Under the pieces are notes generated by a model. That model was given only the letters and a program-made list of their open reading frames with translations. It was not told the origin of the DNA and ran no database searches. From Eubacterium sp. MSJ-33 (GTDB lineage: Bacteria > Bacillota > Clostridia > Lachnospirales > Lachnospiraceae): DNA of 64,000 nucleotides. A program made the position numbers and the translations under genes. Where the stretch lies: positions 1 to 64,000 of the forward strand of contig NZ_CP076562.1 in NCBI RefSeq assembly GCF_022174665.1. The letters are read 5' to 3'. Positions 16,273-35,050 of this stretch are shown in pieces. Position 1 is the stretch's first letter. Every line of letters begins with the position of its first letter.

Positions 16273-16980
<708 letters not shown>

Positions 16981-16982: not shown

Positions 16983-16998
16983 GTGCCATAAAGTATAC
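16983..16998. repeat. 16-bp repeat GTGCCATAAAGTATAC, centred on GTATAC within a 20-bp near-palindrome
   Basis: ccataaagtatactttttgg is 18/20 self-complementary; direct repeat of 17128-17143. Confidence 0.4.
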
Positions 16999-17082
16999 TT
17001 TTTGGTATTTTTGAATCTGGAAAAAATTGTTACATTATGCATTTCGATTTATCAAAATCTTGTCATAAATTGTGTAATTATG

Positions 17083-17111
17083 TTGATAAATATAGATGCA
17101 TATGCTAGAAT
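17083..17111 (+). promoter_or_regulatory. candidate promoter TTGATA-17-TAGAAT for island operon
   Basis: Between the two GTATAC repeats, ~55 nt upstream of RHH gene. Confidence 0.4.
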
Positions 17112-17127
17112 ACAATTGTAATTTTAG

Positions 17128-17143
17128 GTGCCATTAAGTATAC
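17128..17143. repeat. 16-bp repeat GTGCCATTAAGTATAC (second copy, direct)
   Basis: 15/16 identical to 16983-16998; sits just upstream of the RHH gene RBS. Confidence 0.4.
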
Positions 17144-17165
17144 ATTATGAAAAAGGGTGATGAAC

Positions 17166-17357
17166 ATGGCGGAAAAAGTTTTAAGAATCGAGGCGAAAAG
17201 ATATAGAGAGGACTCGGTCGTGATGTCTGCGCGCATACCAAAAGATATGTTACAGGATATTGATTTTGTAGCAAAGGAGTCCGGCAGAACACGGAACGAG
17301 ATTGTAACTATGTTTTTAGACTTCGCATTAAAAAATACAGAGATAATAGAAAAATAA
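17166..17357 (+). CDS. ribbon-helix-helix (CopG/Arc/MetJ-like) DNA-binding protein
   Basis: 63 aa; ...RIPKDMLQDIDFVAKESGRTRNEIV... RHH beta-strand + two helices pattern; start chosen at ATG 17166 for RBS spacing. Confidence 0.6.
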   Translation: MAEKVLRIEAKRYREDSVVMSARIPKDMLQDIDFVAKESGRTRNEIVTMFLDFALKNTEIIEK

Positions 17358-17377: not shown

Positions 17378-19246
17378 ATGTCAAAATTTGCGATAGCATG
17401 TCCAAACTGTGGAAAAAGTGTAGAAGCAAGTACAAAGTTATTTGCTAAAAAGAAAATAAAGTGCACATGCGGATATAGAATTAATGTTCATACGGACAGA
17501 ATGATGACGACAAAATGTTCACATTGTGGTAATCAGGTTGTATTTGATCAATCAAAAGGAAAAAGAGCAGTTTGCCCAGTATGTAGACAAAAAATTAATA
17601 CGGTAAATGATACAGTTGAGGAGTTCGCATGTGAACAATGTGGCATTCGCCTTATCACAGCAAGGAATGCATCGACCTATGTCTGCCCGGTTTGTGATTA
17701 TGAGAATAACGTGCAGGAGCGCGTGATGGCAGAGAAAATCAAGACAGATGGACTGGCAAGTATCATAAAATACGAGGGCGATAATAACACATTTATCTGG
17801 AAGCATCCAATCGAAGATTTTAATTTCGGTTCCCAGTTGATTGTACATGAGAGTCAGGAGGCAATCTTCTTTAAGGATGGGCAGGCTCTCGATCTGTTCG
17901 GGCCCGGGCGTTATACGTTGGAGACACAGCAGCTTCCACTTTTGGAGAAAGTGTATTCGTTACCGACTGACACACAGGGGACATTTCATTCCGAGGTTTA
18001 TTTCATCAACAAGACCGTCCAGATGTCTATCAAATGGGGAACCCCGGATAAGGTTCGGTTCATTGATCCGTTAACAGGAACGCCGCTTGCACTTGGTGCT
18101 TCTGGTGAGATGAATATTCAGGTGTCAAACTCCAGAAAATTATTGTTGAAATTAATAGGCACTATGAAAGGTATTTCGTGGGAAGAAGGACCGGGATTTA
18201 CGAAGTCCCTGCAGGCGTCCTTCCGTCCGCTGATTGCAAATGCGGTCAAGACCAATCTTTCTTCTGTTATCAAGAATGAAGCGATTGATATTCTGGAAAT
18301 CGATGAGAAGCTGGATTTGATATCGGATAATCTGCGAGAAAAAATCCTTCCGGGATTCGAGGAATATGGTTTGACGATACCGCAGTTTTATGTGACCAGT
18401 GTTGTTCTGCCGGAGGATGATCCGAATTTCAAGCGTATTCGGGAATTGCATACAATCACACTTCAGACACGGGTCATTCAGGCAGAAGCAACTGTGAAAA
18501 CTGCACAAGCACAGAGCGAAACACAATATCGGACTGCACAGGAGCAGAGCAAAGCCGCAATCGAGGTAGCACGACGAGAAGCAGAATTGCAGCGTCAGAC
18601 AACAGAGACAGAAATTGCAAAAAGAGCGGCAGAACGCCGCGTAATCGAAGCGCAGGCAGAAGCACAGGCACAACGGATGGCAGGATTGACGGAAGCTGAA
18701 ATCATGAAGGCAAAAGGCTATTCGCAGAAGGATGTACTTCAGGCAGATGTTCAGAAAGCATATGCCGAAGGCATCGGCAACATGGGACCGGCTATTTCTG
18801 CCGGCGGTGGAAGTGGCGTGTTGGGAGACATGCTTGGTTTAGGTGTTGGTATGGCTGCGGCAAGTGCGATTGCTCCACAGATTGGAGGGATGATGCAGGG
18901 CTTTGCAAATCCATCTATGATGCAGGGAGGTGTAACCAACCAGACGATCACACAGGCAGATGCTGATAATCAGGCAGCTTTCTTGTCAAGAAATACGTGG
19001 GATTGTACATGCGGACAGACAGGGAATACAGGAAACTTTTGCAGCAACTGTGGGGCGAAGAAACCGCAGGCAGAACAACCGGACACATGGGATTGTGCAT
19101 GTGGGAAGACAGGAAATACCGGTAAATTCTGTAGTAATTGTGGAGCAAAAAAAACGGAAGCAGAAACAAGCTGGGATTGCACATGTGGACAGACAGGAAA
19201 TACAGGTAACTTCTGTAATAACTGTGGAAAGAAGCGGGGTGAATAG
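17378..19246 (+). CDS. SPFH/band-7 (COG4260-like) protein with N-terminal triple Zn-ribbons and C-terminal triple Zn-ribbon repeats
   Basis: N-term CPNCG..CTCG, CSHCG..CPVC, CEQCG..CPVCDYEN. Core IKYEGDNNTFIWKHPIEDFNFGSQLIVHESQEAIFFKDGQALDLFGPGRYTLETQQLP typical of COG4260 SPFH proteins. Ala/Gln/Glu coiled coil. Gly/Met-rich linker. 3x TWDC[TA]CG[QK]TGNTG[NK]FC[SN]NCG[AK]KK. Confidence 0.7.
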   Translation: MSKFAIACPNCGKSVEASTKLFAKKKIKCTCGYRINVHTDRMMTTKCSHCGNQVVFDQSKGKRAVCPVCRQKINTVNDTVEEFACEQCGIRLITARNASTYVCPVCDYENNVQERVMAEKIKTDGLASIIKYEGDNNTFIWKHPIEDFNFGSQLIVHESQEAIFFKDGQALDLFGPGRYTLETQQLPLLEKVYSLPTDTQGTFHSEVYFINKTVQMSIKWGTPDKVRFIDPLTGTPLALGASGEMNIQVSNSRKLLLKLIGTMKGISWEEGPGFTKSLQASFRPLIANAVKTNLSSVIKNEAIDILEIDEKLDLISDNLREKILPGFEEYGLTIPQFYVTSVVLPEDDPNFKRIRELHTITLQTRVIQAEATVKTAQAQSETQYRTAQEQSKAAIEVARREAELQRQTTETEIAKRAAERRVIEAQAEAQAQRMAGLTEAEIMKAKGYSQKDVLQADVQKAYAEGIGNMGPAISAGGGSGVLGDMLGLGVGMAAASAIAPQIGGMMQGFANPSMMQGGVTNQTITQADADNQAAFLSRNTWDCTCGQTGNTGNFCSNCGAKKPQAEQPDTWDCACGKTGNTGKFCSNCGAKKTEAETSWDCTCGQTGNTGNFCNNCGKKRGE

Positions 19247-19248
19247 GT

Positions 19249-19938
19249 ATGAACAAAAAAGATCAGAGAGGATACATCGTCCTTGGAATTATATTTGTAG
19301 TATTTACTGTAGTTGCATTTGCAGTACCTTTTTCTAAGAAGGCAGGATTCTGGCTTGGGTATGTATTTGGAATAATAGCGATTGCGTTCCAATTATATAT
19401 TTTCAAAATTTCTTTTGCGCAGGGAGAGGATGTAAAGAGTAAGTTTTACGGATTCCCAATCGCACGTATTGGCGTGATTTATCTGGGTGCACAAATGTTA
19501 TTCAGCATATTGGAGATGGCAACAGCAAAATTCCTTTTACCATGGGTGGCAGTCCTTGTGAATATAGTCATGTTAGCGTTTGCTCTCGTTGGATGCATCG
19601 CTGCAGATATCATGCGGGATGAAATCGTGCGACAGGATGTAAAGCTGGAAAAAGATGTAACCAATATGCGCAGACTCCAATCGTTGTCAGCGTCTCTGGT
19701 AGGACTCTGCCAGGATGAAAATGCAAAGAAAACACTGCAGGATATAGCGGATGAATTCAAGTACAGTGATCCGGTATCATCCGAACAGACAAAGGAAATG
19801 GAAGAGGATATGAAGATGCAGTTAGAGGAACTGCAAAATGCAGTATTGGAAGGGGATGTAAGCAATGTTCTAATGCTATGTGTAAACCTGAAAAATCGCC
19901 TGAATGAGAGAAATCAAATGTGTGCGATGAGTAAGTGA
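19249..19938 (+). CDS. membrane protein, 4 TM + cytoplasmic helical tail (unknown family)
   Basis: Four hydrophobic helices in first 120 aa; 2-bp gap from SPFH gene (translational coupling). Confidence 0.6.
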   Translation: MNKKDQRGYIVLGIIFVVFTVVAFAVPFSKKAGFWLGYVFGIIAIAFQLYIFKISFAQGEDVKSKFYGFPIARIGVIYLGAQMLFSILEMATAKFLLPWVAVLVNIVMLAFALVGCIAADIMRDEIVRQDVKLEKDVTNMRRLQSLSASLVGLCQDENAKKTLQDIADEFKYSDPVSSEQTKEMEEDMKMQLEELQNAVLEGDVSNVLMLCVNLKNRLNERNQMCAMSK

Positions 19939-19982
19939 TTGAAAAAAATGAGAAAAATTTAAGAATGGGAGAGCAATGAATT

Positions 19983-21527
19983 ATGGCACAGATGATAACA
20001 TTTAAATGCAAAATATGTGGAGGTAATCTTACTGTTTCACCGGGTGAGTATTTAGCTGAGTGCGAATATTGTGGAACAACAATGACTATTCCGAATATAG
20101 ACTCTGAAAGAAAAGCACGTATGTTTGATCGTGCAAATCAATATAGAATTAATTGTGAATTTGATAAGGCGTATGAGTCGTTTAAGGTTATTGCGGATGA
20201 GGATGAAACAGAGGCTGAAGCATATTGGGGAATGGTTCTATCAGAGTATGGAATTGAATATGTAGAAGACCCGGAAACACATAGGAGGAAACCGACATGT
20301 CATAGGGCACATTTAGAGTCCATAAAAAAATGCGTTAATTTTCAAATGGCCTGTAAATATGCGGAAAAAGAAAATGTAGTCTGGTATCAAGAAGAAGCGG
20401 AGATAATAGATAATATTTCTAAAAGAATAGCAGGTATCGGAGCAAAGGAAGAACCGTACGATATTTTTATATGTTACAAAGAGACAGATGATATTACAAA
20501 TGAACGAACAGAAGATAGCGTATTGGCTCAATCAATTTATGATGAATTGGTAAAAAGAAACTATCGAGTATTTTTTTCAAGGATATCGTTAGAAGAAAAG
20601 CTGGGTAAAGATTATGAGCCATATATTTATTCTGCATTGGTGAGCGCACCAGTTATGATAGTTGTGACTACTAGCAACGAACATTGTCAGGCTGTTTGGG
20701 TAAAAAATGAGTGGTCAAGATATATTGGATTTATGCATGAGGATGATTCAAAAACCATAATTCCGGTCTACAAGAAAATGTCGCCATATGATTTACCAGA
20801 AGAATTATCAAGATTTCAGGCTCAGGACATGGACAAAATTGGAGCCATCCAGGATTTGGTGCATGCAGTAGAGAAGCTGCTGGGAAATGCAAAAAATAAT
20901 GATTCAGAATCTGTAAAAAATCTTAGAAATGAAATAGAAACACGAAATAGGAAAACAAAGAAAATCATTGTAATTGGTACAATTGCAATCATGTTAGGTG
21001 CTCTTGCTATTGGTATAATTTGGAAAGTTAGAAATAAAAAAATAAACTCAACTACAGACAGCCAGTATGTCATGACTGAACAAGATGAAATAGAGCAGTA
21101 TTATTCAGTAATGCAGGAAGCTTATAAAAATGGAGATTATAACGATGCTGTTTCACAGTGGCTTGAAGCAACGGTTGTTTTGAATGAATATGGGGGAGTT
21201 CAGGGAAAGGAGTATAAGGAGACTAAAGAAATTAAGGAAACAGAAGTGAGATTGTTTGATGAATACATGAAGGAACAGAAAGAAGAATATATGAGTAGAA
21301 ATAGCGATGAGTATTATTACTCTAATTTATATGATGTTTTATATTGTCTATCATACCACAAGCATGTGTTAGACGAATCAGAAATTTTTAATGGTGATGA
21401 AAATGAGAAAAATTTCTATATTAAGATTTTGAAAAAAGCGGCTCAAGAGGAAATTGAAGGTTACAAATATGATTCGCAACAAAGGCAACCATACCAGGAT
21501 ATATATGACTATTTAGACAATATGTAA
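19983..21527 (+). CDS. Zn-ribbon + helical module + TIR domain + single TM + C-terminal extracytoplasmic domain protein
   Basis: N-term FKCKICGG...CEYCG Zn-ribbon. TIR signature at aa 157-285: YDIFICYKETDD..., ...SALVSAPVMIVVTT, ...AVWVKNEWSRY with conserved Glu. TM KIIVIGTIAIMLGALAIGIIWKV at aa 327-349. Confidence 0.7.
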   Translation: MAQMITFKCKICGGNLTVSPGEYLAECEYCGTTMTIPNIDSERKARMFDRANQYRINCEFDKAYESFKVIADEDETEAEAYWGMVLSEYGIEYVEDPETHRRKPTCHRAHLESIKKCVNFQMACKYAEKENVVWYQEEAEIIDNISKRIAGIGAKEEPYDIFICYKETDDITNERTEDSVLAQSIYDELVKRNYRVFFSRISLEEKLGKDYEPYIYSALVSAPVMIVVTTSNEHCQAVWVKNEWSRYIGFMHEDDSKTIIPVYKKMSPYDLPEELSRFQAQDMDKIGAIQDLVHAVEKLLGNAKNNDSESVKNLRNEIETRNRKTKKIIVIGTIAIMLGALAIGIIWKVRNKKINSTTDSQYVMTEQDEIEQYYSVMQEAYKNGDYNDAVSQWLEATVVLNEYGGVQGKEYKETKEIKETEVRLFDEYMKEQKEEYMSRNSDEYYYSNLYDVLYCLSYHKHVLDESEIFNGDENEKNFYIKILKKAAQEEIEGYKYDSQQRQPYQDIYDYLDNM

Positions 21528-21561
21528 TCGATAAAATCATTTCTTTGCGGAGGGGAAAAAC

Positions 21562-23994
21562 ATGGCAAATTATTGTATTTATGAAGTAAAAGTAATTGGA
21601 AGTGAAAAGGCATGTTTAATGGTGTTTGAATCAATGCCATATATGGATTATAACCAGATAGAGACTAAGAATCAGAAGAATGAATTAACAGAGCTTATGT
21701 TTGCAGGCAACTGTAAGTGGTCCGTTAATTTTAAAGTGAGAGATGTATTGTCAAAGGTGGATGTTGATTCTTTTGATGAAACATTAATTCAGGAAAAAGC
21801 TTCTGATTATTACCAATATTCATTAAGAGCAAAGTCTGAAGCATTTGAATGTGAAATATTGGTACATTATTGGTCTGAGGAATCTGGGTTTGATCAGTTT
21901 GACCATTATAAAAATGGAGAAATTATAAAAAAGAGAAAAATAAAATTCAACTCTAAGAAACAAAATCGATTTGACTGGAACAAGACAGAATTCGTCGGAC
22001 ACGAAGGAGAATATGATGAGTCTGTGGATGGTGAGGAACAAGATGAAAAATATGTAAAATTTATAACGGATACTATTAATAAATTGGCTGGAAAGACAGA
22101 TGTGTCAATTGATACAAAAAGAGATAAAAATATGAGTACAGACATGGAAAAAGTAGAAAATGCTATGTATCAATGGACGTTTACACAAGGAAATACAGTG
22201 AACTTGAATGAATGGACGATAGGAATTCCGGATGGATTTATGAAAATAAATTCAGAAGAGATGATACCTACAACACACAAAAAAAGACCATTTGAATTGG
22301 TACCTATCAAAGACAAAGAAAATCCTGAATGTGCGACGGTGCGTATTTTGCCAGGTCTTATGAAAAGCGTAGGAAATATAGGAGTTTCAGATATGTACCA
22401 TCCGCTTGCAAAATTGGGTATTGCAGCAATTGTAGCGTCTAATGGTGCTAAAGACTATTTGAAATCTATGGGTGTTGCTTCAAGAGTATTTTATACAGCT
22501 TGGGATAATTCTTATGCATATATACTTGTTCAAGATGCGTTATTTGATACAGTTGATTATCATTGCACGGTATTGGCAAATGGAAAGATCCAAATCTTGG
22601 GCGTGAGGACAGGCGTTAGCGATGTAGATGATTTTGATGAAGATAGAAAAAAACAGTTAGAGCAGTCAATTATTGAATGGTTACATACAATGCAATCTAA
22701 TAAATGTTCAGTGACTGTTCCAACAGTAAAATTTGAAGATGATGATTGTTTTGATGAGGTTATGAAAGGGAAAAGCCTGAAAAAATTTGAAACTGCTGTA
22801 CAACAAGCGCATGAGGAATATCGTGTAGCAATGTTAGGAAAAATGCATGTTGTAAAGTATGAGTTTGAAAGTGGGGTTGGAGTCGGAAAACAAAATGTAA
22901 AGGAAACGACAAAAGAAGTTCTATTGGAAGGAATGAAGGTACGGGAGTTTTATGCAGAAAAGGCAAATGATTTCGTGCAAAGAATACAGCAAGCGGAGAT
23001 AACGGGGGATACTTTTATAAAAATTCTAAAAAAATTGTTGGAATTAAAGAAGGATGATGAGCTAGCAAAAGTAACAATCGATAATCGTGTGGTTAAGGTG
23101 GATGTTCCAGACAGAGTAAAAGAAATAGAAAAAGAATGGGAGAAGATACTTCGTTCTGAGGAAGAGAAAAAGACAAGGGAACTTCAAAAAAAGAGAGAAA
23201 TAGAGGAAGCGAAAAGAAAAACTGCTTTGGAAAAAGAAGCTGCTGAAAAGAAAGCCAGAATGGAAAAAGAAGTAGCCGCGTGGACGGAAGAGGTTGAGAA
23301 AATAAAGAAAGATCGCGAAGCAAATCGTATAGAGAAAATAGCATCATATGAAGATGTGGCCAAAATTAGAAAGCAACATGCAGAGGAAGTTCGAACAACA
23401 CAACTGGATAGCACAAACGGCATGATTCAGGATTTGAAGAACCGTTTATCTTTGGATACTATAGAACTTGGACAATTGGGAGTGTTAAAGTTTCACAGAA
23501 GAAAAGAATTGCAAAATTCTATTGAACAATTGACAAGAGAATTGCAGGAAAAAGAACATGTCCTTATAACAATTGAAAAGGAATATGAAAAGGAAATAAA
23601 AAATGCTGATGAAGAATACACCCGGAAAGTAAATGGCCTTTCCGCGTATCTGGATGAAAAGTATCAAGTGCCAGAAAGTCCAATGGTGGTTGAAGAAAGA
23701 AAGCAAAGAGAAGAAGAAAAAGAAAAAAAAGAACGAAAAATAAAAGAGGATCCTAATTACGAAATAAAGTTAGAGATAATAGAACTTTTGGAGAGCGGTG
23801 AACCGATGATGTGTACTGAAGTGGCCAAAGAACTTGATATCTCTATAAATAAAGCAGTTGCTCTCATGTCGCAGCTTGCTGGTTCGGCGGATATGGAAAA
23901 ACGAGAACCGGGAAAGATATATCCGCTCATTCGTTTTGCAGATGGAAAGAGGATTAAATTTAAGATTAATCCGGAGTGGGATTCAGAGTTATAA
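21562..23994 (+). CDS. large coiled-coil protein (810 aa) with C-terminal winged-helix
   Basis: ~250-aa Glu/Lys-rich heptad region; C-terminal LEIIELLESGEPMMCTEVAKELDISINKAVALMSQL wHTH-like; unknown N-terminal globular domains. Confidence 0.6.
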   Translation: MANYCIYEVKVIGSEKACLMVFESMPYMDYNQIETKNQKNELTELMFAGNCKWSVNFKVRDVLSKVDVDSFDETLIQEKASDYYQYSLRAKSEAFECEILVHYWSEESGFDQFDHYKNGEIIKKRKIKFNSKKQNRFDWNKTEFVGHEGEYDESVDGEEQDEKYVKFITDTINKLAGKTDVSIDTKRDKNMSTDMEKVENAMYQWTFTQGNTVNLNEWTIGIPDGFMKINSEEMIPTTHKKRPFELVPIKDKENPECATVRILPGLMKSVGNIGVSDMYHPLAKLGIAAIVASNGAKDYLKSMGVASRVFYTAWDNSYAYILVQDALFDTVDYHCTVLANGKIQILGVRTGVSDVDDFDEDRKKQLEQSIIEWLHTMQSNKCSVTVPTVKFEDDDCFDEVMKGKSLKKFETAVQQAHEEYRVAMLGKMHVVKYEFESGVGVGKQNVKETTKEVLLEGMKVREFYAEKANDFVQRIQQAEITGDTFIKILKKLLELKKDDELAKVTIDNRVVKVDVPDRVKEIEKEWEKILRSEEEKKTRELQKKREIEEAKRKTALEKEAAEKKARMEKEVAAWTEEVEKIKKDREANRIEKIASYEDVAKIRKQHAEEVRTTQLDSTNGMIQDLKNRLSLDTIELGQLGVLKFHRRKELQNSIEQLTRELQEKEHVLITIEKEYEKEIKNADEEYTRKVNGLSAYLDEKYQVPESPMVVEERKQREEEKEKKERKIKEDPNYEIKLEIIELLESGEPMMCTEVAKELDISINKAVALMSQLAGSADMEKREPGKIYPLIRFADGKRIKFKINPEWDSEL

Positions 23995-24026
23995 ATATAG
24001 TGAAGGATATGGGAGGCGAAAAGCAA

Positions 24027-24145
24027 TGAGTTGTCCAAGATGTGGTGGAAAAATGGATAGTGGTATTTGCGAGGAATGTGGGTTCCCCATTACTCGTATT
24101 TGGGAACATGAAAATTATTATATGCTTTTATTTAGTGAAATATAA
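24027..24145 (+). CDS. 39-aa zinc-ribbon mini-protein
   Basis: MSCPRCGGKMDSGICEECGFPITRIWEHENYYMLLFSEI; strong RBS gggaggcgaaaagcaATG; the longer 23858 track ORF overlaps the preceding gene. Confidence 0.4.
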
Positions 24146-24165
24146 TTGTACGGGAGAGATTTATT

Positions 24166-27100
24166 ATGAAAATTAGAACGGATTTTGTGACAAATTCAAG
24201 TAGTAGTTCTTTTGTTGTTGAAATTTCTTTTACTTTGAAGGATGGCAGGGTGTTGAGGCGTTGTGAAGTAGGAGGGGAGGATGGAAGAGATTTATATGTG
24301 TGTGCGAGTCCAAGACAACTTGGTCTCTGTAAGAATGTTGAGGAAATGATTACGCTGTTAAATGATAGCGTAAAAGTCGAGGAGCGCTTTGATGACTGTA
24401 ATAGAAAGAAATTTGTTGATACAAATTTTATACAGCAACTTGAGTCAATAAAAGAAATGAGCGAAATTGAAAAAATTACAATTTCGGGAAATGAACTAAA
24501 TTATGAAGAGTATGAGAGAATTTATAGATATAATCTTGATACAGAAGAGTATACCTGCGAAATTTTTGGAGAGGAATTTGAAAGTGAAGGATCAGGAGGA
24601 AATCTGGAATTTTGTGACGGATTTTTGGCAACACGTCAGGATGGATATGATGATGGGGAGTTTTTGCGTGTTGAAGATTTACCAATAATTGTTCCGTTGG
24701 AAGAAAGTAGTGATAAAGAACAGGTAAGTTTATTGGAAAATGTCAGAGAAGGTGAAAAACTTATTCTGAAAAATGAATTTACGGATGATTTATTTGACCC
24801 TGTAAAAATAGGCGTTTTTAATAAAAAAAATCAGCTGCTAGGGTATCTTTGCGAATTGGACTATTCGTTAATAGCAATAGCAAGAGCATTAGAAGATGTT
24901 GATGCTTGTGTCGATTCTGTCGCACCATTATCTGGTAGAAAGAAAAATGAAGAATATTCTTTAATGGATGTGAGAATTACATCAAAGGAAGGAAATAACC
25001 CATTTGCAGAAGGTTATAAAATAAAATTTGATGTAAGTGAATTATCTGAAGATGAGAAAAAGTTATTTAATGAAATGATAGAGCACTGGAGAAATCAGTA
25101 TGACAAAGAAGAAGTAACTATGAGCTGGATTTTTAAAATAAATCCACCAGAGTATTTTGTGACTTGTGATGAATTTGATGAAAAAACAGCAGAAGAAACA
25201 AAAAGATTTTTACAAGAAGCAGGTAGCAGAAGTAGCTTAAAAAAGTTACATGCAACATTTTGGGGAAATCTGAATTTTGAAAAAAGAAAATTTCGGCAGT
25301 ATAACTATCTGCTGGATAGAGGATTCTTAGATTGTGAAAAAACAATAGAAGAAAAGAAAGATGAATGCATTACTAATCAGTCATCTTCGTTGGAAGAAAA
25401 AATAGAAAAAGCAGTCGAGAAAGTGAGCAACTTGAAAAAAATGTCTAATACCATGTTTTATGATAGTAGGCATAGTGTGAATATGGATTTTCAAAAAGGA
25501 AAGATTGTTGAATTTGGTAATTATAGACAAGGAAAAAATGGAGTAGTTAAACCTTTACAATGGGTTGTTTTGGAGCGAAAGGGGAATGGTGCAAAACTTC
25601 TTTCATTAAAAGGAATTGAAACCTTGCCATACAATGTCAAAGATGGAAAAACAAGCTGGGAGAAATGCTTTCTTCGTTCGTGGTTGAACACAGAATTTTA
25701 TAATGCTGCATTTTCTTCTGAAGAGGCAGAAAGCATTATTTTATCGGATGTGGTTGCGGTTAGGCACCCCCAATATTTAACTTCACCAGGAAATGATACG
25801 AAAGATAAAATTTTTCTTTTAAATTATCAGGAGGCTGAGAACGTTGGGAAAAGGTGGAAAAAAACATATTTAACGGAATGGGCAGTTCAAAATGATGACT
25901 TGTTTAAAAAAAATTATGGCATAAATAATTATGCACTGTGGTGGTTGAGAACTCCGGCTAGTGCAACGAAAAGAAGTTGTGTGATGGGAAAATATATTTC
26001 TGGGATAGATGTTCGAGATGTTGATGGTATAGCGGTTAGACCTGCGATTTGGATAAATCTTAATTCAGAATATTTTGGTGGATCATTTGAAGTAATGGTA
26101 AAGGATGCTGAGAAAGAATTGTCTGTTGATGAGGTAATTGAAAAAATAAAAGAAAAATACAATACGAAAACAAAACCGACATCTACAATAGAATTTGATA
26201 TTCAAAATGTAGAATACACTAAGCAATTAAATGAATTAAAAAAGAAATGTGAAAATGAATTAGAAATTACATACAGAAATTATTTAATTCAAATGGGAGT
26301 TTTAGGAGACAAGGTAAAATTAATTGATACATACGATCCGTCAGAAATGATCAAGACCTTAAAAGAAAAATATAACAACAGTGAATTAAAACCGAAAACA
26401 TTTGTTGAGTTGATGGATAAAAATCCGGAATTCCGCGAAGAATTAAATACTTTACGTTCTGTATCTCAAAAAAAGTATGGAGATACAGCTGTTGACTATT
26501 TGAAAAAACAGGGGATAATTGCAACTTCGGAGGAAATAGCAGCTATCAGACAAGAAAAAATTAAAAAAATAGTGGTGGAAACAGCAGAACGGAAAGCAGA
26601 AATAAGAAGAAAGGAACGATTAAGGAAAGTTGATAGGATACAAATACAAGATGCAAAATTGCAAAATAAAGTAGATAAATTAATTTATGGCCTGAATGAA
26701 TTATATCCTGAGCATAAAGTATTTTCTTTGGATAGTTTGGATGGCACTCTGCGGGAAAATTTATCAAAGTATGCAAAACAAATAGGATATTTATCTGCTG
26801 ACGATATGCTTTTGGCATATGATTTTGTGAAGATTGATGCTGATGAGGTTAAAGAAATCCGCCCTAATGTATTACATAAACCGGGAAATGAACCAGAAAT
26901 AATCAAGGGTAAGGTGCAAAGTATATTAAGACGATTAGAAGAATATTATCCGGATAAAAAAATAGAGAGGAGTATTCAGTTGGATCATAAAAAACTAAGC
27001 CAAAGTATTACTGGGGCATATCTTTGGCTTGGATATAACAATCAAGGGGAATTCCTGAAGGCTTACGGATATGAAAATAATATAAAATATAATGAAAATG

Positions 27101-27318
27101 GGCGTGGTGGAGGAAGACCATCTTCGACAAATGTAGAAGAGCTTATTATGGAATTAAAGAAAAGAAGTGGAGGAAATCCATATTCTGGATTTAAGGAATT
27201 AAAAGAGAAGAATCCGGATCTGGCAGGAAAGTTAAAAACTATATCTAACAAAGCAAATAGTTTGTTAGGAATGCCGTTCGTAAAGTATTTAAAGCAAGAG
27301 GGAATCGTGCGTGATTAA
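24166..27318 (+). CDS. 1050-aa protein: Ser-run N-terminal module (MKIRTDFVTNSSSSSF), HIRAN-like segment, DUF6273-like domain, long helical C-terminus
   Basis: DUF6273-like block GKIVEFGNYRQ...PLQWVVLE...LLSLKGIETLPYN...SWEKCFLRSWLNTEFYNAAFSSEE...YALWWLRTPAS...VRPAIWINL; HIRAN-like GEKLILKNEFTDDLFDPVKIGVFNKKNQLLGYL. Confidence 0.65.
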   Translation: MKIRTDFVTNSSSSSFVVEISFTLKDGRVLRRCEVGGEDGRDLYVCASPRQLGLCKNVEEMITLLNDSVKVEERFDDCNRKKFVDTNFIQQLESIKEMSEIEKITISGNELNYEEYERIYRYNLDTEEYTCEIFGEEFESEGSGGNLEFCDGFLATRQDGYDDGEFLRVEDLPIIVPLEESSDKEQVSLLENVREGEKLILKNEFTDDLFDPVKIGVFNKKNQLLGYLCELDYSLIAIARALEDVDACVDSVAPLSGRKKNEEYSLMDVRITSKEGNNPFAEGYKIKFDVSELSEDEKKLFNEMIEHWRNQYDKEEVTMSWIFKINPPEYFVTCDEFDEKTAEETKRFLQEAGSRSSLKKLHATFWGNLNFEKRKFRQYNYLLDRGFLDCEKTIEEKKDECITNQSSSLEEKIEKAVEKVSNLKKMSNTMFYDSRHSVNMDFQKGKIVEFGNYRQGKNGVVKPLQWVVLERKGNGAKLLSLKGIETLPYNVKDGKTSWEKCFLRSWLNTEFYNAAFSSEEAESIILSDVVAVRHPQYLTSPGNDTKDKIFLLNYQEAENVGKRWKKTYLTEWAVQNDDLFKKNYGINNYALWWLRTPASATKRSCVMGKYISGIDVRDVDGIAVRPAIWINLNSEYFGGSFEVMVKDAEKELSVDEVIEKIKEKYNTKTKPTSTIEFDIQNVEYTKQLNELKKKCENELEITYRNYLIQMGVLGDKVKLIDTYDPSEMIKTLKEKYNNSELKPKTFVELMDKNPEFREELNTLRSVSQKKYGDTAVDYLKKQGIIATSEEIAAIRQEKIKKIVVETAERKAEIRRKERLRKVDRIQIQDAKLQNKVDKLIYGLNELYPEHKVFSLDSLDGTLRENLSKYAKQIGYLSADDMLLAYDFVKIDADEVKEIRPNVLHKPGNEPEIIKGKVQSILRRLEEYYPDKKIERSIQLDHKKLSQSITGAYLWLGYNNQGEFLKAYGYENNIKYNENGRGGGRPSSTNVEELIMELKKRSGGNPYSGFKELKEKNPDLAGKLKTISNKANSLLGMPFVKYLKQEGIVRD

Positions 27319-27353
27319 TCGTCTGGAGTTTTGGCAAAGAGAGAGGTAAATGT

Positions 27354-28451
27354 GTGAAATATATAATCAGGGATAAAAAATATCGTTTTAAATCAGCGTT
27401 TGATATGGAAACAGGTGCATATGTAAGAACCGGTATTTTAGATGAAAATGGGGAGGATACAGGGGTAGATCCTTTTATGGCGTCTTTTCCGCATCTTATT
27501 GATGTGGGTGTAATGGGACATTGCACTCATGGAAAAACAGGTTTGTGTGCAAGAGCAGGTATAGGCTGTTATCAGAATGGTTTGTATATCAATCAACCCA
27601 ATATGAGTGTAGAAGATTTCCGATGGATTGCGGAACAGTGTAAGGGTAGATGTAATCAATTAGCGCTTGGGGGACGTGGGGATCCAGACCAACATGAACA
27701 ATTTGAAGAACTACTAATGATTAGTAGAGAAAATATGTTAGTTCCTAATTTTACAACTTCTGGTTATGGAATGACAACACAGATTGCGTCCTTGTGTAAA
27801 AAGTATTGTGGCGCGGTTGCTGTTAGTTGGTATAGGAATGAGTATACAATAGAGGCAATAAATATGTTGTTGGAAGCGGGTGTTAAAACAAATATACATT
27901 ATGTGTTGGGAAATAATAGTATTAACGAGGCAATTGAGAGGTTATCAACTGATGATTTCCCGAAAGGTATTAATGCAGTTATTTTTCTTTTACATAAGCC
28001 CGCAGGGCAGGGAACGAAAGATAACATGTTGGCTGTTGGGGATCCGCGAGTAAAGCGTTTTTTTGAGCAGATTGAAAAAAAACATCCGTTTAAGGTAGGA
28101 ATGGATAGCTGCAATGTGCCGGGAGCAATTAATTTTTGTAATAAAATCATTCCGGAATCGTTAGACACATGCGAGGGAGGCCGATATAGCTGCTATATTG
28201 GTGCAGATATGATTATGGTTCCGTGTAGCTTTGATCAACAGAAAATATATGGGGTGTCTCTAAGAAAAATGGATATAACAGATGCTTGGAATAGCATACA
28301 ATTCAAAAACTTTAGAGACAAAATGAAAAATGTCTGTCCGGACTGCAATAAAAAAGCGTTGTGCATGGGAGGATGTCCCCTTATGCCGGAAATTGTATTT
28401 TGCAACAGAAAGGAAAGAAAATTGTATAAAGGAGAAGACAATGAAAATTAG
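27354..28451 (+). CDS. radical SAM/SPASM-like Fe-S protein with non-canonical N-terminal Cys motif (CX7CX6C)
   Basis: GTG start with RBS agagagg. GHCTHGKTGLCARAGIGC where CX3CX2C is expected. GGRGDP at GGE-motif position. NFTTSGYG at ribose-motif position. C-terminal Cys clusters CNVPG..FCNK..C.GG..C and CPDCNKKALCMGGCP typical of SPASM/twitch. Confidence 0.45.
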   Translation: MKYIIRDKKYRFKSAFDMETGAYVRTGILDENGEDTGVDPFMASFPHLIDVGVMGHCTHGKTGLCARAGIGCYQNGLYINQPNMSVEDFRWIAEQCKGRCNQLALGGRGDPDQHEQFEELLMISRENMLVPNFTTSGYGMTTQIASLCKKYCGAVAVSWYRNEYTIEAINMLLEAGVKTNIHYVLGNNSINEAIERLSTDDFPKGINAVIFLLHKPAGQGTKDNMLAVGDPRVKRFFEQIEKKHPFKVGMDSCNVPGAINFCNKIIPESLDTCEGGRYSCYIGADMIMVPCSFDQQKIYGVSLRKMDITDAWNSIQFKNFRDKMKNVCPDCNKKALCMGGCPLMPEIVFCNRKERKLYKGEDNEN

Positions 28452-28515
28452 AACAGAGTTTGTAACTAATTCAAGTAGTAGCAGTTTTAGTGTTATGCAG
28501 ATGTTGAGGAAGTAG
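28441..28515 (+). CDS. orphan 24-codon ORF duplicating the N-terminal module of the 24166 gene (MKIRTEFVTNSSSSSFSVMQMLRK)
   Basis: Strong RBS aaggagaag; first ~50 nt near-identical to 24166-24215; overlaps the 3' end of the rSAM-like gene by 11 nt; may be a precursor-like peptide or a gene-start remnant. Confidence 0.35.
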   Translation: MKIRTEFVTNSSSSSFSVMQMLRK

Positions 28516-28647
28516 ATATAACTACTAAAAAAATTAGAAATTTTAAAAGGTATTATTTGCAACAAAGGGATATTAGATTTGGTTGGAGCATGGAGTGATC
28601 GTCATATAGAATTATGATTTTGCATAAGGAAAGATGAGGAATGGAAG

Positions 28648-30378
28648 ATGCAGGAAAATTATGAGTTAGTACAACGAGGTTTTCGAAAACTGGTAGTTAC
28701 GTTTTCTGGTTATATTGGAAGGGAATTCAGTAAAAAATATAAAAATGCATGGTGGGACGAAGTGTTAGAGGCATTATCAGACCAGCATGATTTGCCAAGT
28801 GATGGTGAATATGGATATCTGATAGATTCATTAGATATTTTAAATTGTATTCGCTTATTAGAACGCAGGTGGAAAGAAGTTTTTCAAGATGAGTTACCTT
28901 TGAACTGTCGTACATGGGCAAAAGAACTTAAGGGGATTAGGAATAAAGTCGCTCATATTGGTCAGCAGGATTTGGATCAGCCCATAGCAGAACGTGCACT
29001 TGACACGATGCGTTTGCTATGTAAAGAATTGGATTCGGATGATGCGGCAGAAATTGAAAAAATATATGAAGAGGTTAGAAAAAGAGCAAATGATTATCGA
29101 CCGGTGACGCGTATTTTTGAGGGAGTAGAGCAACCGGCTTCAGAATCTAATCGCGGTGAATTGATGAAAGATAGTCTTCTTCAGCTTGTCGGAACGGATG
29201 TGGTTCAGAAAACAACGTTGACAAGGAAGGTAACATATGGAGGGAAAACAGTTATTTACCCGGTGTATCGGATTCGCTTAGACTATCTTTTTTATAATGA
29301 TCAGAATGATCGAATAGCAACCTGGATTACCCGATATCAGGCTGAAAATGGCGAAGATTCTTTGCTTGAGCTAGGGAGAGAAGAATACAATAATGTTATT
29401 GAAACATTTATATATGAAAGCAATCCGGATGCAATATCAAAAACACAAAAAAATATTTTGTTGGTCGGACAACGTGAGCCGGGAGTTACTTTATCAGATG
29501 GGCGTATTGTGGATGGAAACCGAAGATACACTTGTTTGCGAAGAATTCAACGTGAGAAAATAGGACCTGTTTATTTTGAAACAGTAATTATGGATATGGA
29601 TATCCGGGAAGACAAGAAACAGATAAAATTATTGGAACTTGCAATACAGCACGGAGAAGAAAAAAAGGTAGACTATGATTTGATTGATTATGCGATTGGT
29701 ACATATAGGGATATTGTGCAGACAAAGCTGCTTACATTGGACGAATACGCAACAGGGACAAATGAAAAACCGGCAGATGTAAAAAATCGAATTGAAATTG
29801 CAGAAATTATTAGTGAGTTCCTAAAGTATATAAAGCTTCCGGAGCAATATCACATTGCGAGGGAATATCAGGTTTATAGTTTGTTTCAGGAGATGATGGC
29901 TCCGCTTAAAAAGTTGAATGAATCAGAAAAGGCGCAACTAAAGAAAATAACATTTAATAATGCTATGATGAAAGTTATACCTGACCAGAGAAAATTTATA
30001 CGAGATATTAAAGGACTGGTTAAAAATGGCACCTATGAATCATATTTTGAAGAACAAATGAATTGGATTAATGTGATTCGGGACAAGTTTGATATGTGCG
30101 AAGTTCATTCTAAAAGTGATATAGACAAGTTTGCAGAAGAAAATGCGAAGATTGCAGAGGAATTGCAAATATCGATGGAAAGAGCTCTGCAAAAATCCCG
30201 GTCAATAATATTAAAAAATAAACCGGTAGAAAATGTGTCAAAAAGTATTACTCTTTTAACAGAGGTGGATTCCAGACTGTTTGGAAGGTTGGAAGAGGAA
30301 GAGAAAAAGCAATTAAAAGACGAATTGGATGAACTTGCAAGAATTGTAGATGTGTTTCGGGAAAAACTTGTGAGGTAG
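28648..30378 (+). CDS. HEPN (Swt1-like, Rx4H) N-terminal domain fused to ParB/Srx-like (DUF262/DGQHR-type) domain
   Basis: GIRNKVAH at 28939-28956 at the end of a ~110-aa helical domain with conserved W/R pattern; downstream IVDGNRRYTCLRRI matches the ParB/DUF262 DG(Q/N)(Q/H)R motif. Confidence 0.5.
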   Translation: MQENYELVQRGFRKLVVTFSGYIGREFSKKYKNAWWDEVLEALSDQHDLPSDGEYGYLIDSLDILNCIRLLERRWKEVFQDELPLNCRTWAKELKGIRNKVAHIGQQDLDQPIAERALDTMRLLCKELDSDDAAEIEKIYEEVRKRANDYRPVTRIFEGVEQPASESNRGELMKDSLLQLVGTDVVQKTTLTRKVTYGGKTVIYPVYRIRLDYLFYNDQNDRIATWITRYQAENGEDSLLELGREEYNNVIETFIYESNPDAISKTQKNILLVGQREPGVTLSDGRIVDGNRRYTCLRRIQREKIGPVYFETVIMDMDIREDKKQIKLLELAIQHGEEKKVDYDLIDYAIGTYRDIVQTKLLTLDEYATGTNEKPADVKNRIEIAEIISEFLKYIKLPEQYHIAREYQVYSLFQEMMAPLKKLNESEKAQLKKITFNNAMMKVIPDQRKFIRDIKGLVKNGTYESYFEEQMNWINVIRDKFDMCEVHSKSDIDKFAEENAKIAEELQISMERALQKSRSIILKNKPVENVSKSITLLTEVDSRLFGRLEEEEKKQLKDELDELARIVDVFREKLVR

Positions 30379-30383
30379 GGGTT

Positions 30384-33302
30384 ATGAATATAAAAATATT
30401 ATCAATTGATGAAATAGGTTTGTCAAATCGTTCTGTGAATGCACTACATAGGGTGGAAATATATACAGTTGGGGAGATGATAGAATTAAACGAAGAATTT
30501 TTGCATAAGATTAGAAATATTGGAGAAAAATCAATTGAAGAAATTTGTAAGAAAATACAGGAATATAAAATATTGGAAACAAATTCGAATATTGAAGTTC
30601 CGGAAGATTTTGATGAATGGATTTTGGTTGAATCCAACCAGCAATTTGTAATAACGTGGTTAAGAGATAATAAGATAAAAATCGACGAATTAGAATTATT
30701 ATCGGTACGGGCATATAATTTGCTGATATTTTCAGGGTATGAGTATTTGTATCAGGTGGCTTTTCTTACAGAAAAAGATTTGATGCAGATTCCCAGAATG
30801 GACAGCTCATCTGCATTAGAAATTGTTCGGTATGTATCAAGATATATTGCGGAACAACAAGAACAAATTATTGCGTCAATTGTTCAGATGCAGTCTAAGG
30901 AGACACCATTAAATCAGGTGTCAGTTTTTGATATACTTGATAAAATTGAATATCATGATGTGATATTGGACTTTGTGAAATTGCATGATATTTTGCTTGA
31001 TGGAATGAATATTTCCAATCGGGCAAAAAATAGCTTGAGTATAAGCGGGTATTATTATCTTAGTGATATAGTATTTATGACATATACGCAGCTGAAAAAT
31101 ATACCATCTATGGGAGCTGGAACGGCAAAAGAAGTTATAGATAAAATAAATGAATATCTAAGTAAATATGAAGCGAGAATTTTGGCATTCGTTAGTGGTG
31201 ATGTGTCTGGGTTATGGGATGACACAGAAATACAACAGAGGATTTGGAATCAGTTTCGTGATATTGGATTTCAAGGACTTAGTCTGAATGAAATAGTAGA
31301 ACGGATGAAGCTTCCGGAACAAGTGACGATAGAGCGAATAAAGAAAAATATAGGTCAGCTGATTGTTGATAAAAAATTAGAATATGTAGATTATCGATGT
31401 TACCGTGTGTATGCGCGGTTTGCGGATTATTTGGAGCAATGTGATGTTATTGATGAAAGATCAAAAAATATTTTAAGAAAACGATTGCAATCTATGACAT
31501 TAGAAGAGATTGGACAAGAAGAAGGGATAACCAGAGAACGGGTACGTCAAATCCTGAAGAAAGGGATTGTCCAAATTAAAAAAATATATAAGTCAAGGGA
31601 AGGTACCAATTTATTTGATGAGGATTATTATCGATATTTGTATGAAAATTATGATTTTGATAAAAAGGATGGAACGGAATGGCTTGGAATTCCCGTATAC
31701 GTATGGAAATATCTTGAGTTAAATGATGTAAAACAGGGAAAGAAAGAGTTGCAGTCGGCGAGGGAAGATCAACAGGGACTTGATCTTGGAATGCGTTTGA
31801 AAATAAAAAACTATCTTAATAGAAATAAACTTTTTGTGGATGGTAGATGGATTGAAAAGGAGCGTGCGGAATTAGAAAAGGTTGTTATTAGAAAATTTTG
31901 TCAGGAAGATGTATCGTTTGGGAAGTTTTGCCAGATATATAATCAGTTTTTGTTACAGGAAGAAATACCATATGATGAAGATATCTATTATACAGAGACA
32001 GTGTATCGGACAAGAAAAAATCGTATTCGTGATTTAAGATACTTGCTTTGGAAACAGCACGAACAAATAAGATATTATGATATTGATGGACGTGATTATG
32101 ATGAACTTTTGGATACATTAAATCTGGATGCTTATGAGAATATTGAATTGTCGACAGAAAAATTCATGAGAGATTATCCGGAAATTATGAAGAAATATGA
32201 TATCCGGGATAAGTATGAATTACATAATTTATTAAGGAAAATCATACCGGAAGGAAGTTATCATGAGTTTTTCTGTGAACGTACGCCAAATATCAGATTT
32301 GGACACTTTGATCGTGATGCTGCAGTATTGGACATTTTGATTGATAATGCGCCAATAGCTCAGGATGATTTAGCGGATCTAATAAGTGAGGAATATGGAT
32401 TTGATGCGGATGGAATAAAATCTAATTATTTGAAGCCGGTTTCAGAGTATTTACATCAACGTACATATTCGATTGATCAGAAATCCATGTCTGTTGAAAA
32501 TCGAGAATTATTACATGAAGCACTTACAGATGATTTCTATTTTATGGATGAGATTCGACAGATTTATGATAGGTTAATTCCAGGGGCAGATAGAGAAGAG
32601 ATTAATCCGTATAATTTGAAGGTGATGGGATTCCATGTTTATTCAAGATATGCAATTCAAAACCATTCGTCTGTTGATGCGTATTTTGATGACTTATTAA
32701 CGCGGGAAGATATTATAGATATTACAGCGTATAAAAAAAGATATGCATATGTGCAGATGTTTTCGCAGAAGTTGATGGAATTAAAACGAGATTTAACAGT
32801 AATTGAATTTGAAAAAAATCAGATTATTAATTTTAGAAAATTGGAGCAATCAGGTGTTACGAAAAATATGATTCAGGAATTTTGTGATAATGTTTATAAC
32901 TTTATTACAGATGGAACATATTTTAGTATTCAATCCTTGATACAGGATGGCTTTCAGTCTGACTTGCATGAGCTGGGATTTTCTGATTGGTTTTATGCGA
33001 ATTTGTTAATATCTGATGAACGTTTTTCAGCTGCTATGATGTTTGGAAATTTGATTTTTTATAAGGGAAAAGCGTCAATAACGATTAAGATGTTTGAAAA
33101 AGATATTATTTGTAAGTATCAAAGTATGGATACATATGATCTTGTGGATGAACTTACCGATCGGTATGGATGTAAGGTTCCGGATAAATATGATGTTATC
33201 TATAAAGTTCAGGATACAGAGGTGTATTATGATAAAATCTTAGATCGTCTGTATGCCAACATGAATGTATATGATGAAGAATGCGCGAGAGGAGGGTTTT
33301 AA
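30384..33302 (+). CDS. 972-aa protein: 3x RNA-polymerase alpha-CTD-like HhH repeats + sigma-70 region-4-like HTH + ~600-aa unknown C-terminal region
   Basis: LSIDEIGLSNRSVNALHRVEIYTVGEMIELNEEFLHKIRNIGEKSIEEI (alpha-CTD pattern) repeated at aa ~100 and ~200; MTLEEIGQEEGITRERVRQILKKG (sigma r4.2 pattern). Confidence 0.55.
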   Translation: MNIKILSIDEIGLSNRSVNALHRVEIYTVGEMIELNEEFLHKIRNIGEKSIEEICKKIQEYKILETNSNIEVPEDFDEWILVESNQQFVITWLRDNKIKIDELELLSVRAYNLLIFSGYEYLYQVAFLTEKDLMQIPRMDSSSALEIVRYVSRYIAEQQEQIIASIVQMQSKETPLNQVSVFDILDKIEYHDVILDFVKLHDILLDGMNISNRAKNSLSISGYYYLSDIVFMTYTQLKNIPSMGAGTAKEVIDKINEYLSKYEARILAFVSGDVSGLWDDTEIQQRIWNQFRDIGFQGLSLNEIVERMKLPEQVTIERIKKNIGQLIVDKKLEYVDYRCYRVYARFADYLEQCDVIDERSKNILRKRLQSMTLEEIGQEEGITRERVRQILKKGIVQIKKIYKSREGTNLFDEDYYRYLYENYDFDKKDGTEWLGIPVYVWKYLELNDVKQGKKELQSAREDQQGLDLGMRLKIKNYLNRNKLFVDGRWIEKERAELEKVVIRKFCQEDVSFGKFCQIYNQFLLQEEIPYDEDIYYTETVYRTRKNRIRDLRYLLWKQHEQIRYYDIDGRDYDELLDTLNLDAYENIELSTEKFMRDYPEIMKKYDIRDKYELHNLLRKIIPEGSYHEFFCERTPNIRFGHFDRDAAVLDILIDNAPIAQDDLADLISEEYGFDADGIKSNYLKPVSEYLHQRTYSIDQKSMSVENRELLHEALTDDFYFMDEIRQIYDRLIPGADREEINPYNLKVMGFHVYSRYAIQNHSSVDAYFDDLLTREDIIDITAYKKRYAYVQMFSQKLMELKRDLTVIEFEKNQIINFRKLEQSGVTKNMIQEFCDNVYNFITDGTYFSIQSLIQDGFQSDLHELGFSDWFYANLLISDERFSAAMMFGNLIFYKGKASITIKMFEKDIICKYQSMDTYDLVDELTDRYGCKVPDKYDVIYKVQDTEVYYDKILDRLYANMNVYDEECARGGF

Positions 33303-33307
33303 TTATA

Positions 33308-33808: not shown

Positions 33809-33839
33809 CAAATCTTTTTATTTTATGATATGCTAGCAT
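33802..33839. promoter_or_regulatory. operator-like pair of TGCTAGCA palindromes spaced ~20 bp
   Basis: aTGCTAGCAaatctttttattttatgataTGCTAGCAt overlapping stop of HIRAN gene, 27 bp upstream of HipA-like start. Confidence 0.4.
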
Positions 33840-33865
33840 TATCAAAATGAAAGGGCGGACGTAGT

Positions 33866-35002: not shown

Positions 35003-35010
35003 TGAAAAAT

Positions 35011-35050
35011 GACTCTCTGGAATCATAAATGATTTCAGAGAGTTTTTTAT
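35011..35050 (+). terminator. rho-independent terminator, right edge of island
   Basis: gactctctggaatcat / atgatttcagagagtt stem + ttttttat. Confidence 0.5.

Follow-up and report, generated by a model that had tools for sequence, protein, structure and literature searches.

The first 64,000 nucleotides of contig NZ_CP076562.1 from Eubacterium sp. MSJ-33 (assembly GCF_022174665.1, forward strand), hereafter the window, encode an SPFH protein whose central domain is bracketed by arrays of zinc ribbons (ZnR). What bacterial SPFH or flotillin-like proteins scaffold is a long-standing question, very few of them having a defined client. Comparative genomics of the locus names specific and testable SPFH clients, namely a partner with four transmembrane (TM) helices, here called TM4, and a family of TIR-sensor proteins. 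We consider it probable that the SPFH protein and TM4 are the constant module of a mobile, inverton-switched operon whose variable module is made up of ZnR-TPR-TIR-sensor proteins, and we favor a role of the pair as their scaffold or gate. The cassette appears to be undescribed. The architecture of the SPFH protein alone is of modest interest; the context of the cassette raises that interest.

The SPFH gene and its linked partners

The genes of the cassette that are discussed first are the following.

17157..17357, + strand: ribbon-helix-helix (RHH)/CopG/Arc-like DNA-binding protein, likely start ATG 17166, 63 aa (Pfam Arc, E 0.0033)
17378..19246, + strand: SPFH (Band_7_1) protein with Zn-ribbon arrays, 622 aa, from the list of open reading frames (ORFs)
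19249..19938, + strand: TM4, 229 aa, four TM helices and a cytoplasmic four-helix bundle in the AlphaFold2 (AF2) model, predicted local distance difference test (pLDDT) score 84
19983..21527, + strand: TIR protein with ZnR at aa 9-30, TPR-like helical region, TIR at aa 161-285 (Pfam TIR_2), TM at aa 328-346 and a C-terminal region

The gaps between the genes of the operon are 20, 2, 44, and 34 nt, and no convincing terminator was found on the + strand between 17157 and 24200. A Shine-Dalgarno sequence rated good, AAAGGAGAGG, lies 5' of the SPFH ATG, and the TM4 start follows 2 nt past the SPFH stop. The product of 17157..17357 also matched a CopG-like repressor among the PHROGs (E 1e-5); an RHH gene is directly upstream of the SPFH gene in many loci, and the protein is a probable regulator of the operon. 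The AF2 model of TM4 is confident, with eight helices and no beta domain. TM4 had no match in Pfam, NCBIfam, PADLOC, or PHROG, a Foldseek search against the PDB returned nothing significant (best E 0.28), and none of its 422 homologues is named.

Within the SPFH protein, three regions lie between the ribbon arrays.

17816..18418, + strand: SPFH/Band_7_1 domain, aa 147-347 (Pfam PF13421)
18422..18712, + strand: long Ala/Glu/Gln-rich helix, aa 349-445 (a single helix in AF2, pLDDT about 56-79)
18809..18904, + strand: Gly-zipper-like hydrophobic segment, aa ~478-509, GDMLGLGVGMAAASAIAPQIGGMMQGF, conserved in the homologue alignment

A sequence-only reading of this DNA had assigned the central region to the SPFH superfamily, and the match to Band_7_1 (E 3.7e-35; 121.9 bits, where the cutoff is 24) bears this out, the domain being nearly invariant in an alignment of 36 homologues. 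The helix that follows is presumed to be an oligomerization coiled coil, by analogy with other SPFH proteins. What the same reading had termed a low-complexity linker is so in part, as a variable Q/N/P spacer of differing length, but its other part is the conserved Gly-zipper-like segment. This Gly-rich segment holds the sole hydrophobic peak of the protein (1.64 at residues 481-499, by Kyte-Doolittle hydropathy in a 19-residue window), a value borderline for a TM helix, and the same analysis found no N-terminal membrane anchor. Neither a single-sequence nor a profile search of the PDB returned a solved relative.

The closest characterized relative is YdjI of Bacillus subtilis, whose gene belongs to the pspA-ydjGHI operon (COG4260). 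A soluble Band_7_1 protein, YdjI has a low-complexity region and one C-terminal Zn finger; it is brought to the membrane by YdjG, which has two Zn ribbons, an NTF2-like domain, and a TM segment, and by the TPM protein YdjH, and it is needed for the localization of PspA (PMC8581546, PMC11237479). The two proteins have in common a Band_7_1 domain lacking an N-terminal anchor, a helical region, a Gly/Met-rich segment, a C-terminal ribbon, and membrane proteins that are separately encoded, and N-terminal Zn ribbons occur in the partner YdjG. They differ in that YdjI has no N-terminal and one C-terminal ribbon, whereas the protein studied here has three and three, and in that the ydj operon comprises PspA, YdjG, and YdjH, whereas the present cassette comprises the unrelated TM4, TIR-sensor genes, and an inverton. 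The SPFH protein is a true and conserved variant within the YdjI-type family, and its features would place it in the cytoplasm at the periphery of the membrane. An identification of TM4 as YdjH or as NfeD was ruled out by its lack of a TPM or OB-fold domain.

We then examined which genes accompany SPFH elsewhere. In all five of five independent contig contexts, the SPFH gene was followed 2-4 nt downstream by a TM4 gene encoding 229-232 aa, and then by one or two genes for TIR_2 proteins that differ in architecture. A survey anchored on SPFH covered the best 80 of 251 species-genome loci, chosen by similarity. TM4 came immediately after SPFH in 58 of 71 loci, and a TIR gene was found downstream on the SPFH strand in 45 of 59 loci and anywhere in the locus in 56 of 59 (95%). 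The SPFH-anchored loci, 1.22 Mb in all, contained 117 TIR ORFs, with one to four ZnR-TIR-sensor genes per locus. The converse anchor was a profile of the N-terminal 300 aa of the TIR protein, used against metagenome contigs and free of bias from SPFH similarity; more than 511 stretches matched, and the 47 loci of at least 8 kb were counted. SPFH was present in 39 of these, and SPFH or TM4 in 41 (87%). The linkage of SPFH, TM4, and TIR holds across unrelated genomic neighborhoods, and includes three-gene units, set among housekeeping genes, in which an SPFH protein lacking N-terminal ribbons is joined by TM4 and a single ZnR-TIR protein.

Distances among SPFH proteins were correlated with those among TM4 proteins with a Mantel r of 0.77, as against 0.26 for SPFH and the TIR N-terminal module, as would be expected if SPFH and TM4 form an obligate pair whose TIR partners can be exchanged. 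Their gene linkage indicates that the SPFH-TM4 and TIR genes are probably linked in function. The sequence-only reading had hinted at a link to TIR through ribbon similarity; the link proved much stronger than supposed, by way of gene linkage and not of the ribbons.

The inverton and the cargo slot

The elements flanking the SPFH-TM4 pair are given below, where L-numbers denote homologous loci or contigs compared with the window, L013 being that of Eubacterium sp. MSJ-21, and GC3 is the G+C content at third codon positions.

16384..16980, + strand: small serine recombinase (resolvase/invertase), 198 aa (Pfam Resolvase, E 1.3e-30)
16983..17008, no strand: left recombination site, a pseudo-palindrome with a GTATAC core at 16993-16998, at the inversion breakpoint against L013/L014
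16999..17137, no strand: invertible segment, 139 bp, between the recombinase and RHH genes, its promoter-like site directed toward the operon (ON)
17083..17111, + strand: promoter-like TTGATA-17-TAGAAT with an extended -10 TG, 55 nt 5' of the RHH ATG
17128..17153, no strand: right recombination site, a pseudo-palindrome with a GTATAC core at 17138-17143, agreeing with the left site, inverted, at 19 of 30 positions
19937..35048, no strand: hypervariable cargo slot downstream of TM4, 15.1 kb (synteny against L013/L014, low GC3)

The segment is inverted relative to the window in L013, L014, and L096-L100 (92-95% match) and forward in L093 and L095, while its flanks are always forward. Since an identical SPFH protein, P0008, is encoded both in L095, where the segment is ON, and in L096-L100, where it is inverted, the cassette appears to be phase-variable. 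The recombinase is likely the invertase for the adjoining inverton; the same gene is found upstream of the cassette also in L004, L008, L009, L095-L097, and L099, and homology to L013, broken over 16074-16384, is back at the recombinase ATG at 16384. Among 24 consensus matches in 16000-24200 the promoter-like site ranked first (10/12 plus TG), a match at the level of consensus only, and the total of such sites in this region was not above the shuffled expectation. It overlaps an inverted repeat, I1 (17036-17058 / 17080-17102). Gut invertons of the Hin/Gin type likewise have a short promoter segment, imperfect inverted sites, a small serine recombinase, and both orientations in nature, but these control flagellin, fimbriae, or capsule genes, whereas the operon here is that of SPFH, TM4, and TIR; we found no description of the inverton at 16999..17137. 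A strong terminator-like hairpin with a 14-bp stem and a T-run, at 16312-16345 between a phospholipase D (PLD)-family gene (14637-16070) and the recombinase gene, marks the left edge of the island.

The window is collinear with L013 and L014 through thrS, PLD, recombinase, RHH, SPFH, and TM4. Homology then ends at 19936, in the TM4 stop codon, and resumes only at 35044-35049. The cargo that lies between amounts to 15.1 kb for the window, as against about 4.2 kb for L013 and 8 kb for L014, and its GC3 (0.25-0.33) is set off from that of the constant module (0.41-0.49) and of host genes (0.53-0.62). Contigs with the identical SPFH protein P0008 bear different TIR genes.

The break in synteny right after TM4 and the contrast in GC3 between constant module and cargo would also suit an ordinary YdjI-like envelope-maintenance protein that happens to lie beside an integration hotspot, the TIR genes being unrelated cargo accumulating there, and the combination of Band_7_1, low-complexity region, and C-terminal ZnR is indeed that of YdjI. 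We regard such a coincidence as very improbable. No PspA, TPM (YdjH), or YdjG-like gene is present in the cassette, and no PspA or TPM match was found among the neighbors in the window and five other contexts. The SPFH-TM4 pair is mobile, recurring in unrelated neighborhoods with ZnR-TIR along in 95% of loci, and the TIR family is accompanied by SPFH or TM4 in 87% of the independently anchored loci. Finally, the minimal SPFH-TM4-TIR units occur among housekeeping genes.

TIR-sensor partners and a possible scaffold

The product of 19983..21527 matched TIR_2 with an E value of 9.1e-11, and 115 neighbors of SPFH genes share its conserved N-terminal 300 aa. These partners begin with a Zn ribbon (113 of 115), followed by a single TPR-like unit with a helical region and the strongly conserved TIR domain at ~151-300; TPR repeats and then a variable C-terminal sensor come after it. 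The TIR motif AVWVKNEWSRF shows conservation of at least 90% among the partners, and the Glu in it is presumably the catalytic one, given the resemblance to the W..E motif of plant and bacterial TIRs. Of 98 C-termini, 35 carried DUF6273 as the sensor, 24 RCC1 propellers, and 3 BspA-type LRRs (LRR_5). One TM segment is present in 55 of the 115 partners. In 19 proteins DUF6273 is combined with a single TM segment, the TM always coming first, and in 20 it is found with no TM; L011:10585-13194 and L006:10549-13380 are an example of such a pair (proteins from the L013-L092 set). The DUF6273 sensor thus seems, from these arrangements, to be used on either side of the cell membrane. A bAvd gene, an accessory variability determinant of diversity-generating retroelements (DGRs), lies directly downstream of the TIR-DUF6273 gene in L010-L012 at about 13327-13716; conceivably, DUF6273 is a ligand-binding domain that a DGR diversifies.

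The invertible promoters of gut bacteria typically drive surface-exposed structures, and a single TM followed by DUF6273 or RCC1/LRR, as is typical of Firmicute surface proteins, is found in about half of the TIR partners. Both points would agree with a non-immune, phase-variable form of surface sensing, in which TM-bearing TIR receptors in an SPFH-TM4 microdomain answer host, dietary, or bacterial ligands with an NAD-derived messenger and no cell death. We think this quite unlikely, because the other half of the partners bear the same sensors but no TM, and hence are cytoplasmic, and because the turnover of cargo, the paralogues, and the HEPN, HipA-like, and restriction neighbors are hallmarks of conflict systems.

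In the scaffold or gate that we favor, the following would take place. TM4, encoded 2 nt downstream, would be translationally coupled to SPFH. Other SPFH proteins oligomerize into membrane rings or cages, and the present protein may do so through its long helix, assembling as a ring or cage against the membrane's inner face, where TM4 and the Gly-zipper-like segment would hold it much as YdjG and YdjH hold YdjI. The resulting platform would concentrate or restrain the TIR proteins, which as a class need higher-order assembly for activity, so that their NAD cleavage would fire only when the sensors, some extracellular and some intracellular, detect phage or another threat. The Zn-ribbon arrays would be accessory, multivalent docking modules whose number is tuned by duplication and loss. 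Such an arrangement can be compared with the SPFH-NfeD and HflK/C-FtsH cages, where SPFH likewise lies beside and diverges together with a small membrane protein and is expected to organize or sequester clients. NfeD, however, has a C-terminal OB-fold, whereas TM4 is all-alpha and has no NfeD match in Pfam; and the SPFH protein here has no N-terminal TM and would have TIR proteins as its clients, as against the protease of the HflK/C-FtsH type.

The cassette also recalls Thoeris, having a constant component, a variable number of TIR genes, and surroundings that resemble a defense island. One constant module with one to four TIR genes mirrors one thsA with several thsB, the SPFH protein has its conserved Gly-zipper-like segment, and the conserved cytoplasmic four-helix bundle that is modeled for TM4 could sense a ligand. 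It is conceivable, then, that infection is sensed by the TIR proteins, which produce a signal derived from NAD, upon which SPFH-TM4 acts as an effector that permeabilizes the membrane via TM4, the Gly-zipper, or both. As for Thoeris itself, ThsA is built on SIR2/SLOG or Macro, whereas the constant part here is SPFH with TM4 and the TIR proteins are large multidomain sensors. No ThsA-type domain (SIR2/SLOG or TM-Macro) was found in the window cassette or related loci. The TIR protein scored 27 bits against the NCBIfam ThcB4 model, for which the cutoff is 220, and the PADLOC Thoeris models gave no match. We judge the effector reading unlikely. Searches of SPFH and TM4 with Pfam, NCBIfam, and PADLOC found no recognizable domain for binding a nucleotide signal (SLOG, Macro, SAVED, CARF). 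TIR proteins with such elaborate sensors could be self-contained sensor-effectors, and the strongly conserved SPFH core suits a scaffold more than a toxin.

Several considerations weigh against a scaffold or gate for TIR proteins. For the full-length SPFH protein, the AF2 model, made from a shallow alignment of 36 homologues (each at least 69% identical, among the matches listed), had a mean pLDDT of 53, falling below 50 over residues 124-280; with the SPFH core so poorly modeled, oligomerization and membrane association are drawn from knowledge of the family. The SPFH-anchored loci were selected by similarity, the component hidden Markov models were built from 6-7 sequences (TM4, RHH, TIR) or 36 (SPFH), and about 13% of the TIR-anchored loci have neither SPFH nor TM4. 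The Mantel value of 0.26 between SPFH and TIR fits a swapping of cargo but would also fit a looser functional coupling. A profile search of the PDB with the N-terminal 300 aa of the TIR protein matched one TPR-like unit and no solved TIR, and the catalytic status of the Glu rests on motif resemblance. Many functional-looking cassettes are devoid of ribbons. PADLOC, NCBIfam, and the PHROGs gave only generic ribbon, TIR, and RHH matches and recognized neither SPFH nor TM4 nor the cassette.

Beyond the scaffold itself, we tentatively suggest, as something that may well prove otherwise, that the cassettes represent an undescribed and widespread family of membrane-organized TIR immune systems in gut and rumen Clostridia, in which a flotillin-like SPFH microdomain clusters or gates TIR receptors with variable sensors that look outward or into the cytoplasm. 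Such a family, if real, would be a bacterial counterpart of raft-organized Toll-like receptor signaling, phase-variable as a whole and with sensors swapped as cassettes. A search of open-access literature and bioRxiv found no paper joining SPFH/Band_7 with TIR proteins or phage defense, and current resources for defense annotation miss the cassette entirely. If the linkage is functional, it would add a new class of partner to TIR-based immunity, couple bacterial TIRs across the membrane to variable outward sensors of the LRR or propeller type, and offer a tractable system for the control of clients by an SPFH assembly. The cassette is abundant in Clostridia of the human and ruminant gut, and its phase variation and rapidly exchanged sensors mean that it may shape phage-host dynamics in gut communities.

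Zinc ribbons, distribution, and neighboring genes

All 24 cysteines of the SPFH protein fall in six ribbon-type motif pairs, which are encoded as follows.

17399..17695, + strand: three N-terminal Zn ribbons, aa 8-31, 47-69, and 85-106 (Cys motifs)
18998-19060, 19088-19150, and 19172-19234, + strand: three tandem C-terminal Zn-ribbon repeats (Cys motifs, Tandem Repeats Finder)

The N-terminal motifs are C8xxC11..C29xC31, C47xxC50..C66xxC69, and C85xxC88..C103xxC106, so that of the three CxxC..CxC ribbons previously described the number stands, but only the first has that form. The C-terminal unit, WDCxCGxTGNTGxFCxNCGxK, occurs at aa 541-561, 571-591, and 599-619; the units are tandem and three as had been proposed, but they are spaced by 30 and 28 aa and not by a uniform 28. 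All 24 Cys are invariant in the 36 homologues. AF2 gave the ribbons as beta-hairpins (pLDDT 64-79 for the N-terminal ones and up to 81 over all ribbons), and Pfam ribbon families matched them below the family cutoffs only. Two Cys knuckles, hairpins, and conserved Cys fit the Zn ribbon, and zinc binding is predicted.

Tandem Repeats Finder reported a period-90 array at 18998-19228 (2.6 copies, 76% matches, score 264). In keeping with the earlier observation that the copies differ mostly at synonymous positions, pairwise codon comparison counted 5-12 synonymous against 2-5 nonsynonymous codon differences per repeat pair; by the method of Nei and Gojobori (NG86), dN was 0.06-0.13 and dS ranged from 0.87 to saturated, estimates that are noisy with only 21 codons. 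In L001, L013, and L014, relatives at 93-95% identity, the DNA distance between repeats at the same position was 0.02-0.10, as against 0.13-0.25 for those at other positions. Each repeat is thus closest to its positional counterpart, and the triplication is therefore older than the splits between these loci, which confirms that it is no recent slip. Family-wide, sister repeats within a protein were closer (mean distance 0.207) than same-position repeats between species (0.281). Together with the variation in copy number, this indicates that the array turns over or evolves in concert on longer timescales.

A search of 5.8 billion proteins gave at least 8,000 scored matches to the SPFH protein. 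The best 120 of these are all full-length, 69-98% identical, and annotated just as "SPFH domain-containing protein". Three N-terminal ribbons are present in 118 of them; the C-terminal repeats are conserved as well, in 2-5 copies, with three in ~76 and four in ~42. The architecture had been taken for an oddity against a one-ribbon norm of COG4260; YdjI does have one, but the architecture described here is the norm within its own clade. An exhaustive search of 1.84 billion cluster representatives found 467 clusters at E <= 1e-30, in which the full-length architecture is kept down to ~32% identity alongside variants starting at residue ~126. In the TIR-anchored sample, 25 of 46 SPFH partners had no N-terminal ribbon and 20 had three; C-terminal ribbons mostly numbered 2-4, and four partners had none. 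Family-wide, then, there are from 0 to 5 C-terminal ribbons, and about half of the proteins have the N-terminal triplet. As the presence of ribbons varies in this way between SPFH partners, they are, to judge from these motifs, lineage-variable accessories.

The N-terminal ribbons had also been likened to the ribbon that opens the TIR protein. BLASTP did not support this (best E 0.06 over 14 aa, not significant). With hhalign, ribbon 3 (79-109) did align to the TIR ribbon (Prob 81%, E 1.2e-5; score 30.2 as against 12.4 +/- 2.9 in a Cys-fixed shuffle control), but the features in common, CxxCG and strand hydrophobics, are generic to Zn ribbons. The further proposal of a shared recognition module fails in its obligatory form, since SPFH proteins lacking N-terminal ribbons still adjoin TM4 and ZnR-TIR genes. 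A separate gene encoding the N-terminal ribbons was sought in those loci, and none was found.

A relative of the SPFH protein is encoded in 251 GTDB species genomes, most of which are gut and rumen members of the Lachnospiraceae, Oscillospiraceae, Ruminococcus, and Christensenellales; the closest GTDB match is Eubacterium sp. MSJ-21 (94%). The family is not carried by phages and hardly at all by plasmids: IMG/VR held no relatives, INPHARED gave weak partial matches only, and among plasmids a single divergent copy was found, in a different context. Two contigs binned as Bacteroidota, L060 (a Paludibacteraceae metagenome-assembled genome, MAG) and L074 (an Alistipes MAG), carry relatives, at 67% identity, of this SPFH protein that is typical of Clostridia, which could be due to horizontal transfer or to a binning error.

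Further genes of the island lie downstream of the TIR gene. An 810-aa coiled-coil protein (21562-23994), for which the only family match is a weak C-terminal HTH, precedes a 1050-aa protein (24166-27318) with a central DUF6273 (E 6.5e-23), the sensor domain of many ZnR-TIR partners, and no TIR. A radical-SAM/SPASM-like protein is encoded at 27354-28451 (SPASM E 2.4e-6; radical SAM weak). Next come a 576-aa protein with an N-terminal Swt1-like HEPN domain (28648-30378; HEPN_Swt1, E 6e-24) and a 972-aa protein (30384-33302) with three RNA polymerase alpha-CTD-like repeats, sigma-70 region 4, and a weak likeness to segments of MzaA and PglW; the two (28648-33302) form an unusual pair in which no known system was recognized. 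At the right end of the island, a HIRAN protein (33281-33808) and a HipA-like kinase (33866-35002) matched PADLOC PDC-M03 B and A (E 2e-11 and 2e-17) and are probably a separate two-gene defense candidate. Defense-type genes found in related loci include LlaJI, DUF4365, and PBECR4.

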